A DNA stretch of 64,000 bases from NCBI GenBank assembly GCA_037305845.1, contig CP147778.1:128001-192000 (forward strand). The letters are read 5' to 3'. Below are positions 52,650 to 62,330 of this stretch, one piece after another; positions within the stretch are counted from its first letter, which is position 1; every line of letters begins with the position of its first letter. The stretch comes from Candidatus Freyarchaeum deiterrae (GTDB lineage Archaea; Asgardarchaeota; Jordiarchaeia; Jordiarchaeales; Jordiarchaeaceae). The notes under the pieces were generated by a model. The model saw only the letters and a program-made list of their open reading frames with translations. It was not told the DNA's origin and did not search any database. Both the position numbers and the translations under genes were made by a program.

Positions 52650-53603
52650 ATGGGAAGGATTTTCAACGATATTACTGAAACAATTGGAGGAACACCTCTA
52701 GTAAAGCTGAAAAGATTAACTCAGAATATCAAACCGAACATTTTGGCAAAACTGGAAAGTGCTAACCCTGGTGCTAGTGTAAAAGACCGAATTGCGATAT
52801 CTATGATTAAAGCTGCTGAGGAGAAAGGATTAATAAATTCCGAGACCGTCATAGTGGAACCCACATCGGGAAACACTGGAATAGGTCTGGCAATGGTGTG
52901 CGCCGCTCGCGGATATAAACTAGTTCTAACCATGCCCGAATCAATGTCAGTGGAGCGGAGAAAAATTCTCCAAGCCTACGGTGCCCAACTTGTTCTAACA
53001 CCAGCTGCTCAAGGAATGTCCGGAGCGATTCAAAAAGCACAAGAAATAAAGGAAAACGATGAAAAGGCATTCATTCCTCAACAGTTCGAGAACCCCGCGA
53101 ATCCTCAGATACACAGAATTACCACCGGTCAAGAAATCCTTGATGACACTGGGGGCAAGGTTGACGCCTTTGTAGCTGGAGTAGGCACCGGAGGAACAAT
53201 AACTGGTGTAGGAGAAGTCTTAAAGCAGAAAATAGGTCCGCAGGTTAAAGTGTTTGCTGTTGAGCCGGAAGATTCCCCTGTTTTATCAGGAGGAAAAAAG
53301 GGACCCCACAAAATTCAGGGTATAGGAGCAGGATTCGTCCCGCAAATTTTGAACATGAAGGTAGTGGACGAAGTGGTGAAAGTGAGTTTCAAGGATGCGG
53401 TGGAAACCTCAAGGAAACTGGCAAGACTGGAGGGAATATTTGTCGGCATCTCATCCGGAGCCGCTATGTGGGCTGCGTTAAAAATAGCTGAACGATTCAA
53501 AAAGGGCCAAAACATAGTTGTAATACTACCAGATACTGGTGAAAGATATCTCTCCACCGAATTGTGGCAGTTTGAGCCACCGGCTGAATCCGGGGCGATT
53601 TGA
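52650..53603 (+). CDS. cysK: Cysteine synthase A (O-acetylserine sulfhydrylase)
   Basis: SVKDRIA PLP lysine, [32 protein letters not shown]. Confidence 0.96.
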
Positions 53604-53604
53604 G

Positions 53605-54030
53605 TTGAGGATATTAATGCTTCACGTGGATTACTTCAGTTCTACGGTAGCTAAAAGGGGTAGATCGAAAGTCGTCGAAACCCCTTCTTCTAAGAGTATG
53701 AAGGTAGAAGAAGCGCTCCTGGTTCTCATCAATGTTGAGAAACAGGACGAAGCCAACCCCGAGGATATATCGAGAAAAACTGTTGAGGAAGTAGCAAAGC
53801 ATGGTAATCAGCTCAAGGTGAACACGATAGTTCTCCACCCCTTTGCTCATCTGTTTGGGGAACCCAGTGAACCCGAGGTGGCTATAGAGATAATGAAGCT
53901 CATGGAGGAAGACCTTGTACAAAAAGGCTTCAGTGTTGCGAGGACTCCCTTTGGCTGGTTCAACACTTGGGAACTGAGAACGAAAGGCCATCCATTATCA
54001 AGGGTTGCAAGAAAAATTTCTGTAGACTAA
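53605..54030 (+). CDS. Free-standing archaeal threonyl-tRNA synthetase editing-domain protein
   Basis: (M)RILMLHVDYF, VEKQDE, HPFAHL, TPFGWF, KGHPLSR; TTG start 1 nt after the cysK stop. Confidence 0.85.
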   Translation: MRILMLHVDYFSSTVAKRGRSKVVETPSSKSMKVEEALLVLINVEKQDEANPEDISRKTVEEVAKHGNQLKVNTIVLHPFAHLFGEPSEPEVAIEIMKLMEEDLVQKGFSVARTPFGWFNTWELRTKGHPLSRVARKISVD

Positions 54031-57023: not shown

Positions 57024-59054
57024 TTAGGTTTTTTTAAGTTTATCCAGTTTCTCCATGAGGGTCATTAGTTCTTTCTGGAGACTTTCCTTACGCTCTAAAT
57101 CCGAGGAGGTTATGCTTCCCTCAAGTTCTTTCCTGCGCAGCTCCTCTATTTCCTTTCTGACTTCGAGGAACCGGTTCTGGATCTTCTCAATTTTCTCCGC
57201 GTCTTTGGGTTTCACTGGCTTCGCTTCCAGCAGAGAGGGTGTTCGTGCTAGGAATAGGCTGGAGTAGAGATAGTCTTTCTGAACCTTGTCGTACTTGGCT
57301 TCAATCTTATACCGCTCAAGGATATACTTCTTAAAATCGATTTCACCCGAATCGTACCTAGACTTCAGATTTTCAAGCTTCGCCCCATAATTGTTAACCG
57401 TTTTCTGCAGATTCTCCTTATTCCTCGTTAATTTATCTATCTTCTTTCTCTGAAGATTTTGAACCTTCTCAAGGTCGATTAACGAGGCTAGAATGGCGGG
57501 GAAGGACTCCTTAAACTGTGACACATTGCCCTTCCAGTCCTCCAGTTGTTTATAGTGGCTCTGCTCGATTTGTACCAGAAACTCGTGCAGTTTGCTTCTA
57601 ATCCATAGTTCCTCGTCAAGTCCTATATCACCGGTAATGCAGGTTGCGGTGAGCAGCTGGCTCTCTTCTCGTATGAATGTTCCGAATTCCGTGCTGAGTC
57701 TTTTGAGTCCGCCGACCTTCATTTCTTCCAGGAAGGATTTGATTGCGGACATGAATCCTGAGACCAGGGCGATGTCCTGCTCCATAGAAATAAAGTCGAA
57801 AGACCAAATCATGACGCCAGTAGGATTATGGTCAACAAGAATATTCTCCAAGCTCTTCAAAGCATTTAACGGAATCATCCGCTTCTTATACGCCGTCCAG
57901 CCTCCATACCCACCTGCAACAACTGCTCCCAAAGCAATGAAACCTAGTAATATGAAGAAGTTGTTCTGATTATCCTTCGTAAAATTATAATAGGAAAGCA
58001 GAGTTAAGCTCCTCGTGTAGAGCATTCCTAAAACATCAACACCGGAAACCTCTATTGTGACATCGAAAATAAGGGGGCTGAACCAACTATTGGCTACATA
58101 CAAAGTCGCCATGTTCTCAGATATATTAAGAGGCTGCGAAAGATTACCCAAGCCTGCACCCCTTGAGAGATTTTGCACAGCAGTCCCATTTACATTCATG
58201 TTCACATCAGTCGGGAAGGGAGTTTCCCAATAACCCGACTCATTATACACACTAAAACGAACTCTGAGACAATAATCAATACCTCCAAGGGTATGATTTG
58301 TACTATCCGCGTATTCAAAGCTCCAATCTGAACCATTATAATTAAAGGCGTATCCTTTATCGTCGTAAGTTTGACCAGCATTAGTCGCTATTGCGTTATC
58401 AGGAGCGTAGAACCAGAAAACATGATAAGCTGCTGGAATAGACGCATTTATCCCAATAAAGAAGGTATTATTATAAGTATTAATCTCAGGATCGACTTCA
58501 GAAGTATTGTCTGCATAAAAGTCTTTCCACCCTATGGGACCAGTAATCAGAGGAAAATCAACTGTTTTATTAAAGAGAAGAGTGTCCGGTTTTGGGACTG
58601 TATTACCATCGATAGTAGTATTGATAGCATTATAGAAGGATATACTTAAATTAATATATGATGGGGGGGGAGTTATTGGGTAATAGAATAGGTAGAAGCC
58701 TAGGGAGTACAGGTAAGCGCTTTGGTTTTCTGGAAGTTGGATGGACATTGCCCGGGAAAAATTAGTTATATCATTTACTCTTAAGGCGTCCTCCTCCATC
58801 GAAATTGTGGAGTTAGGAGCCCTAACGTTAGAAAAAGTCGTGTTAACGGAGGTAACATCCCACCCATTAGGAATTGGGATTTGGATAGAGTTGGCGGAAC
58901 TTAGGTTATGAAAGGGGCCATAAGTGAATTTTGAACTTGTATCCAAGCCTTGAACTGTTCCATAAGCGGTGTGCGAAGAGGGCTGCAGCATAATAACAGA
59001 AGAAGCAATCACAAGACCAATCAGTAGAGAAATGAGCAAAACTCCTTTTCTCAT
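57024..59054 (-). CDS. Single-pass membrane protein with Asn-rich ectodomain, cytoplasmic longin-like domain and coiled-coil/SHOCT-like tail
   Basis: Signal peptide; many NxS/T sequons; TM FFILLGFIALGAVVAGGYGGW-TAYKKR; TGVMIWSFDF...LVSGFMSAIKSF.EE...F...W.G.VSQF longin-type pattern. Confidence 0.75.
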   Translation of the reverse strand: MRKGVLLISLLIGLVIASSVIMLQPSSHTAYGTVQGLDTSSKFTYGPFHNLSSANSIQIPIPNGWDVTSVNTTFSNVRAPNSTISMEEDALRVNDITNFSRAMSIQLPENQSAYLYSLGFYLFYYPITPPPSYINLSISFYNAINTTIDGNTVPKPDTLLFNKTVDFPLITGPIGWKDFYADNTSEVDPEINTYNNTFFIGINASIPAAYHVFWFYAPDNAIATNAGQTYDDKGYAFNYNGSDWSFEYADSTNHTLGGIDYCLRVRFSVYNESGYWETPFPTDVNMNVNGTAVQNLSRGAGLGNLSQPLNISENMATLYVANSWFSPLIFDVTIEVSGVDVLGMLYTRSLTLLSYYNFTKDNQNNFFILLGFIALGAVVAGGYGGWTAYKKRMIPLNALKSLENILVDHNPTGVMIWSFDFISMEQDIALVSGFMSAIKSFLEEMKVGGLKRLSTEFGTFIREESQLLTATCITGDIGLDEELWIRSKLHEFLVQIEQSHYKQLEDWKGNVSQFKESFPAILASLIDLEKVQNLQRKKIDKLTRNKENLQKTVNNYGAKLENLKSRYDSGEIDFKKYILERYKIEAKYDKVQKDYLYSSLFLARTPSLLEAKPVKPKDAEKIEKIQNRFLEVRKEIEELRRKELEGSITSSDLERKESLQKELMTLMEKLDKLKKT

Positions 59055-61931: not shown

Positions 61932-62330
61932 ATGAAGGAAAAAATTGAAGACTTAATGAACCGTGTTAAATCCTCCATGTATTTTAAGGCTTATCTGGCT
62001 TTGATGGATGAGGATGGAAAAATCCTTTATAATAATTTCAACGACAGCTTTAACCGAACTCTCAGAGGCTTGGTTCCTATTCTTAAGACTTTGGATACTG
62101 GTGAGTATCATGTCAGAAGGCTAGCAAGAAGCCGTTTAATCATTTTAAGAGTTAGCGATGGATTGGTCTTGGCTGCGGAAAGCTACGCTAGAGATGGTAT
62201 ACTTATTTTCACAATGAATAATGCTGTGGAAAGGCTCAGAGAGGAGTTCGTTGAACTAGACTTACTAATGACACTATCCGACATGGCATTACCAGAAAGT
62301 GAATCAAAAATAGTGGAACAACTCGTGTGA
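61932..62330 (+). CDS. Hypothetical protein, profilin/roadblock-like fold candidate
   Basis: Helix, YLALMDEDGKILY hairpin, helix, three strands (LIILRVSDGLVLAA), helix. Confidence 0.55.
   Translation: MKEKIEDLMNRVKSSMYFKAYLALMDEDGKILYNNFNDSFNRTLRGLVPILKTLDTGEYHVRRLARSRLIILRVSDGLVLAAESYARDGILIFTMNNAVERLREEFVELDLLMTLSDMALPESESKIVEQLV

Follow-up and report, generated by a model that had tools for sequence, protein, structure and literature searches.

In the 64,000-nucleotide stretch of DNA analysed here (the window), the gene at 57024..59054 on the minus strand encodes a 676-amino-acid (aa) protein in which a lectin-like extracellular head, a single transmembrane (TM) helix, a cytoplasmic longin domain and two helical hairpins follow one another in one chain. 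The host is a soil Asgard archaeon, Candidatus Freyarchaeum deiterrae, whose genome forms a single contig of 3,576,204 bp with 41% GC. Our analysis establishes the fold, topology, conservation pattern and spread of this protein computationally, and from these we infer its ligand, its partner and the transfer of a signal. The reading that we favor, at a probability of roughly 0.45, is an adhesion receptor that binds glycans and anchors to the membrane a longin on which small GTPases can dock. The gene and its parts, all on the minus strand, are laid out as follows:

57024..59054, minus: gene for the type I membrane glycoprotein, head-TM-longin-two hairpins (open reading frame and coordinates checked)
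58965..59054, minus: predicted signal peptide or signal anchor, aa 1-30 (Kyte-Doolittle hydropathy, KD, 2.86 at aa 5-23)
58035..58964, minus: all-beta, probably glycosylated head, aa 31-340 (AlphaFold pLDDT 86; 19 sequons)
58245..58820, minus: lectin-like jelly-roll insert, aa 79-270 (conserved acidic positions)
57963..58034, minus: extracellular juxtamembrane helix, aa 341-364, moderately hydrophobic, followed by a polar linker (helix in the model)
57897..57959, minus: TM helix, aa 366-386, then the basic cluster KKR (hydropathy, charge)
57474..57854, minus: cytoplasmic longin domain, aa 401-527 (model fold; conservation)
57243..57473, minus: helical hairpin 1, aa 528-604, with a turn of SHOCT/steadiness-box type
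57030..57209, minus: helical hairpin 2, aa 616-675 (model helices H228-257 and H262-287)

The gene stands alone between flanking genes of opposite strand, and congeners hold its orthologues at the same synteny; a promoter and terminator scan gave a signal no better than chance. In the proposed mechanism the fast-diverging head, carried on stalks of 0 to over 2000 aa, would bind glycans or a surface, for instance that of a partner cell or the matrix, and the longin just under the membrane would form one half of a longin dimer; the other half could come from a paralogue, one of the short forms that have no ectodomain, a soluble longin or a fusion of longin and GTPase. With such a dimer small GTPases would have a place to dock on the membrane at the point of contact, and the hairpins would oligomerize the tails, so that binding by the head would cluster the platform. 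The platform would be a scaffold or resemble a guanine nucleotide exchange factor (GEF), and would not be a GTPase-activating protein (GAP) of the FLCN/NPRL2 type. This reading is supported by the longin fold and its cytoplasmic position, by the enzyme-like constraint on the longin next to a divergent lectin insert, by an invariant beta2-alpha1-beta3 face, by the class-wide family with its recurring head-TM-longin order and its retained ectodomain-less form, by the likeness of the head fold to a Cwp84 domain, and by the many longins of the genome, six of them joined to a P-loop GTPase.

The original prediction had proposed a signal segment, a sequon-rich ectodomain and a single TM helix, with the longin inside the cell, and both the layout and the location were borne out by hydropathy, sequon and charge counts, from which we called the topology. 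An MRK start precedes the hydrophobic segment at aa 5-23, as it does in homologues, and the ectodomain carries 19 sequons, compared with a chance expectation of 6.3 +/- 2.2, and the tail one. Across 47 homologues sequon density is 4.6 per 100 aa in the ectodomain versus 0.13 in the tail, and basic residues number 5.0 after the TM helix versus 1.2 before it; because of these sequon and positive-inside biases the C-terminal part is assigned to the cytoplasm. With its signal segment, sequon-rich N-terminal ectodomain, one TM helix and positive-inside charge, the protein is a type I membrane glycoprotein whose head is probably secreted and N-glycosylated. A second TM helix at aa 341-364, which would place the longin outside, was ruled out by hydropathy, charge and sequon bias: this helix is less hydrophobic than the TM helix (family mean KD 1.34 vs 1.97), and a second TM helix is also unlikely since many surface proteins of the genome that have almost no tail end in a similar series of helix, linker, TM helix and basic residues. 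At least ten large surface proteins (for example at genome C1 599907, 2908305, 3201845, 3502821-3514517 and 3534770) share a C-terminal arrangement of hydrophobic helix, polar Q/G linker, TM helix and short YFRR-type tail, which resembles a lineage-specific C-terminal sorting or anchoring signal. Another large type I family (C1:476056, 976697, 2937983 and 3516168) has a conserved juxtamembrane motif, RARIP..I.RID.LI, and an acidic tail, and several of its genes adjoin TM-longin genes both in this genome and in relatives.

In the AlphaFold model the head is a beta-sandwich (aa ~40-78 plus ~271-340) into which a jelly roll of the Cwp84-lectin-like or carbohydrate-binding module (CBM) type is inserted, and D260 is invariant among 25 diverse heads. 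The nearest fold is that of a Cwp84 domain described as calcium-binding and putatively carbohydrate-binding (PMC4089489), and on the strength of this model the head may bind glycans. No Pfam or NCBIfam family matched the head, and Pfam, NCBIfam and PDB sequence searches with the head, the tail and the tail of relatives returned nothing significant; matches to haemagglutinin HA2 and YnzC were dismissed as coiled-coil noise. Word-based head searches, which are insensitive, gave Asgard proteins only and do not prove a restriction to Asgard archaea.

A longin fold in the cytoplasmic part had also been predicted, and the model agrees: it shows a five-stranded sheet in the order b1-b2-a1-b3-b4-b5-a2-a3, with no N-terminal roadblock helix inside the domain. 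None of the 47 family members gave a longin match in Pfam or NCBIfam, the atlas offered a weak Fuz_longin_1 lead (0.77), and genome-internal phmmer searches tie the domain to soluble longin-like and longin-GTPase proteins (E 1e-7 to 1e-2). The longin is the most conserved part of the protein, above all on its beta2-alpha1-beta3 face, where the invariant residues cluster and which in longins serves for dimerization and for the binding of GTPases. In three orthologue pairs the longin is 80-87% identical and neighboring enzymes 84-87%, with 68-79% identity for the hairpins and 43-60% for the lectin insert. The GP motif before strand 2, which marks GAP-type longins (PMC12290439), is present in 0/47 members; G413 is followed by V, T, I or A and the beta4-beta5 turn is merely tight. 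R462, invariant in 47/47 and a possible counterpart of the arginine finger that adjoins the GP motif, lies in strand 4 before a tight turn in the model. Where coiled coils with two SHOCT-like units had been suggested, the model contains two helical hairpins, and the SHOCT family PF09851 scored 16.4 bits, below the Pfam cut-off of 27. Weak SHOCT matches occur in 26/47 members (best E 1e-4), no protein of the genome exceeds the cut-off, and hairpin 2 is lost or degenerate in two tandem paralogues. Within the longin, aa 429-474 (46 aa; window 57633-57770) are identical in the paralogue at C1:195672-197762, 8.6 kb away, with DNA agreement of 38-44 of 45 there and 26-34 of 45 further on, and the hairpins resemble the paralogue at 3520939 more than this neighbor; patchy gene conversion among paralogue tails is possible.

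The genome holds eight paralogues, three with a head only (676-696 aa), three with a head plus stalk (960-1071 aa) and two without an ectodomain (326 and 340 aa). The short form at 548349 appears to be maintained, since orthologues occur in five congeners at ~64% identity, and the second short form resembles a deletion copy of its tandem neighbor. The full longin-hairpin tail is found in 11/11 genomes of the class, with 3-8 matches per genome in the same genus and a single intact long form in the small-genome family; outside the class, matches cover the longin part only. The 50 closest homologues are labeled Freyarchaeota, Jordarchaeum or Lokiarchaeia, and all are 'hypothetical' where named. 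A profile search of 1.84 billion proteins gave 226 matches, and 72 of the 132 further matches that were scored have a TM helix shortly upstream of the longin, mostly behind large sequon-rich ectodomains. The head occurs in 111 of 251 Asgard genomes (about 44%) and in 12 of 27 families, including complete Lokiarchaeial genomes, and is absent from the searched genomes of several other families (0/58 in the largest). Among 19 head-bearing open reading frames (ORFs) from eight other Asgard families, not cut before the TM helix and inspected at loci hand-picked for spread over families, 15 lead from the head into a TM-longin; the order occurs in Lokiarchaeia and Hermodarchaeia, and named cases are Hermodarchaeota and Ca. 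Harpocratesius repetitus. In relatives outside the class the longin is followed by a winged-helix-like domain of ~85 aa, often with TPR-like repeats. The head-TM-longin order is thus common to several Asgard lineages, with varying head sequence, stalk length and post-longin tail, and the hairpin tail is class-specific. The hairpin tail might conceivably be a degenerate winged helix: compared with the relatives' winged-helix-like tail, it scored 20.6 versus at most 13.3 in 30 shuffles, but at an HHalign probability of 7.6%. In the best longin tree the Freyarchaeial longins group with adaptin-appendage-longin proteins (90/85), and an approximately unbiased (AU) test does not reject a grouping with other head-TM-longins (p 0.28); such trees, of 124-136 columns and poorly resolved, neither establish nor reject a single origin of all head-TM-longins. 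Side findings include a broken second family copy in G004 (L033:12131-14244), in G234 (L091:2879-7565) a second head-bearing gene without a TM helix (656 aa), which stands next to the intact gene and has a 916-aa ORF after it, and two proteins, P0143 and P0188, in which a TM-longin is joined to a KaiC-like ATPase domain.

A further suggestion, that ectodomains and eukaryote-like effectors are mixed and matched in this protein and in a TM-RING protein, found no support, as the family has a single homologous head. A survey of ectodomains fused to this longin found one head in all six ectodomain-bearing paralogues and no swaps (E 1e-78 to 1e-104), and the head occurs nowhere else in the genome. 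The stalks of the paralogues match one another only, and 13 distant TM-longin proteins carry the same head (E 1e-28 to 1e-42). An ectodomain shared with TM-RING proteins was ruled out, the ectodomain of the window's TM-RING protein matching only another TM-RING protein. The type I surface proteins of the genome do use several kinds of cytoplasmic tail.

Several observations weigh against a receptor that docks small GTPases. No binding partner was found and the gene context offers none: the nearest GTPase-like gene by pattern count is 134 genes away, and only three paralogues (3.32-3.34 Mb) stand within 2-5 genes of a GTPase, in contexts that congeners do not share. None of the 20 class loci has a conserved operon with a GTPase, and among 20 loci of other families four (L085, L090, L091 and L094) have a GTPase close to the gene, without consistency. 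Many longins, for example those of SNAREs and adaptors, do not regulate GTPases (PMC4917890), glycan binding is argued from a jelly roll that viral structural proteins share, and an effect of binding outside on events inside is something we infer. GTPases of MK-D1 also generally lie outside operons with longins (PMC10933270), which makes gene context weak evidence either way. In favor of docking, longin/roadblock dimers are small-GTPase docking platforms, mostly GEFs, from prokaryotes to eukaryotes (PMC10933270), and the genome encodes at least 37 longin proteins, 6 of them fused to P-loop GTPases. It also has at least 24 GTPase-like genes. Between two TM-longin loci, a cluster at C1:3325033-3338840 contains three tandem longin-GTPases, a further GTPase-like gene, KaiC-like ATPases, a Rab-like GTPase and a possible DENN-type gene. 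At L094:5209-10452 (G237:C2) a head-TM-longin-TPR gene, with a divergent longin gene upstream, is followed 13 bp later by a gene for a 172-aa small GTPase, and the two products are a good candidate binding pair; in the Hermodarchaeial family f12 (L100:1-4169, G030:C9) a homologue lies two genes from an actin gene. Within the window, 61932-62330 (+) encodes a 132-aa protein that looks roadblock/longin-like by eye, has no Pfam match and is missed by the longin profile, and its gene is kept between two scramblase-like genes in congeners. The window also contains, at 53539-54030 (+) after cysE-cysK-like genes, a free-standing archaeal threonyl-tRNA synthetase editing domain (PF08915, E 4e-40).

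Three other explanations were weighed. The protein could be a structural envelope glycoprotein or adhesin without signaling, whose longin and hairpins oligomerize or tie it to a cortical scaffold independently of GTPases. The coat of Asgard cells is indeed irregular and contains many adhesin-like single-pass proteins (PMC9834061; bioRxiv 2025.07.22.663070), and the absence of a catalytic motif and of a conserved gene partner, together with a strong conservation that would suit any obligate protein-protein interface, fits this view. We nevertheless consider it rather unlikely, as a short basic tail suffices for most surface proteins of the genome, and the strongly constrained 290-aa tail, like the conservation of forms without an ectodomain, speaks for a function in the cytoplasm. 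Unlikely, too, is a cargo or sorting receptor tied to machinery of the ESCRT or coat-like kind and sorted into vesicles or protrusion necks, in which the longin would act like an adaptor sigma/mu subunit and hairpin 1 like the steadiness box that joins ESCRT-I. No family member matches Pfam Vps23_core or VPS28, comparison with Vps28 and Vps23 gives E 0.65 and 5.4, and hairpins of this kind are frequent in the genome. Moreover, the AU test leaves the grouping with other head-TM-longins standing (p 0.28), and Hermodarchaeia, reported to be without additional ESCRT families, have the head-TM-longin order in 7/7 genomes.

A one-component transcriptional sensor, in which cleavage near the membrane would free the tail, is suggested by the winged-helix-like tail ends of relatives, whose ~85-aa post-longin domain has helix-turn-helix (HTH) clusters among its structural neighbors (TM-score 0.54), by the 'longin fused to HTH' entry among the asCOGs and by the conserved juxtamembrane helix. 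The protein studied here, however, has hairpins instead, with weak likeness to that tail (HHalign probability 7.6%), and post-longin winged helices also occur in NPRL2-type and ESCRT proteins that do not bind DNA, so that we regard a sensor of this kind as very improbable. An ancient Asgard receptor class, in which a membrane-tethered longin links surface glycan recognition directly to the activation of small GTPases and ectodomain-less paralogues act as co-receptors or decoys, goes further than the adhesion receptor that we favor and seems doubtful to us; if true, it would be a prokaryotic forerunner of receptor-to-GTPase signaling and would explain the delivery of Asgard GTPases to specific membrane sites. 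Hardly any partners are assigned to the dozens of small GTPases and longins that Asgard genomes encode, and the irregular coat of surface proteins on cultured Asgard cells lacks an explanation. The head-TM-longin family joins the coat and the longins in one chain, and supplies a concrete bait (the 130-aa longin) and a concrete ligand test (the 300-aa head). If the longin docks GTPases, the family illustrates how GTPase switches could have been steered by contact at the cell surface before there were eukaryotes; if it does not, it is one more Asgard domain fusion.

Fusions of membrane segments with longins have already been cataloged, as one-line labels: the asCOGs include 'membrane protein/domain fused to sybindin-like domain' (cog.012914, cog.005434), 'longin fused to HTH' (cog.000113) and NPRL2-like longins (table in PMC11291895). 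The asCOG longins (Liu et al., bioRxiv 2020.10.19.343400) share the fold and the alpha1 signature of the longin described here. This protein could not be assigned to an asCOG, and for that catalog we found no text on a lectin-like head, a head-TM-longin family, a hairpin tail or short forms. Our literature search, in which subscription papers lay outside the scope, found no description of the family; our analysis adds that the lectin-like head is shared between lineages, that the hairpin tail is specific to the class, that an ectodomain-less form is conserved and that the GAP test fails. The head is 10-16% identical to the Cwp84 lectin-like domain (PF18560) and to phage baseplate or tail-tip jelly rolls, with no Pfam match, and carbohydrate binding by Cwp84 is itself just putative. 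A related longin, nearest in the tree, is found in the adaptin appendage-Vps28C-longin proteins (Makarova et al., 2024, PMC10936438), some of which have immunoglobulin (Ig) ectodomains and a TM helix (P0069-P0071, P0087, P0107). Their longin lies at the C-terminus, some 360 aa away from the TM helix, whereas ~15 aa separate the two here, the head is different, and the appendage module is missing, its profile matching none of the paralogues. The same five proteins represent a second Asgard class, with an Ig or FG-GAP ectodomain (or multiple TM helices), a TM helix, an adaptin-appendage-like module and a C-terminal longin, homologous to soluble forms fused to PCI/UFM1-ligase and HTH domains. The GAP longins FLCN, NPRL2 and SMCR8 and the GP-motif Asgard longins (PMC12290439) have the longin core in common with the family, which differs in its lack of the GP motif and in having only the tight beta4-beta5 turn; NPRL2 combines a longin with a winged helix, like the tail of the relatives. 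The eukaryotic longin platforms (SRalpha SRX with SRbeta, Mon1-Ccz1, Fuzzy-Inturned (CPLANE), TRAPP Bet5-Trs23 and AP/COP sigma-mu-zeta) are soluble or peripheral and 8-14% identical, and to our knowledge none has an ectodomain fused through a TM helix. Finally, the longin R-SNAREs (VAMP7, Sec22, Ykt6) have the opposite order, longin-coil-TM, as the original prediction had recognized, and a membrane-proximal SNARE helix; the present protein, which has no SNARE match in Pfam, instead combines a large ectodomain with the order TM-longin-coils and carries its hairpins at the free C-terminus.
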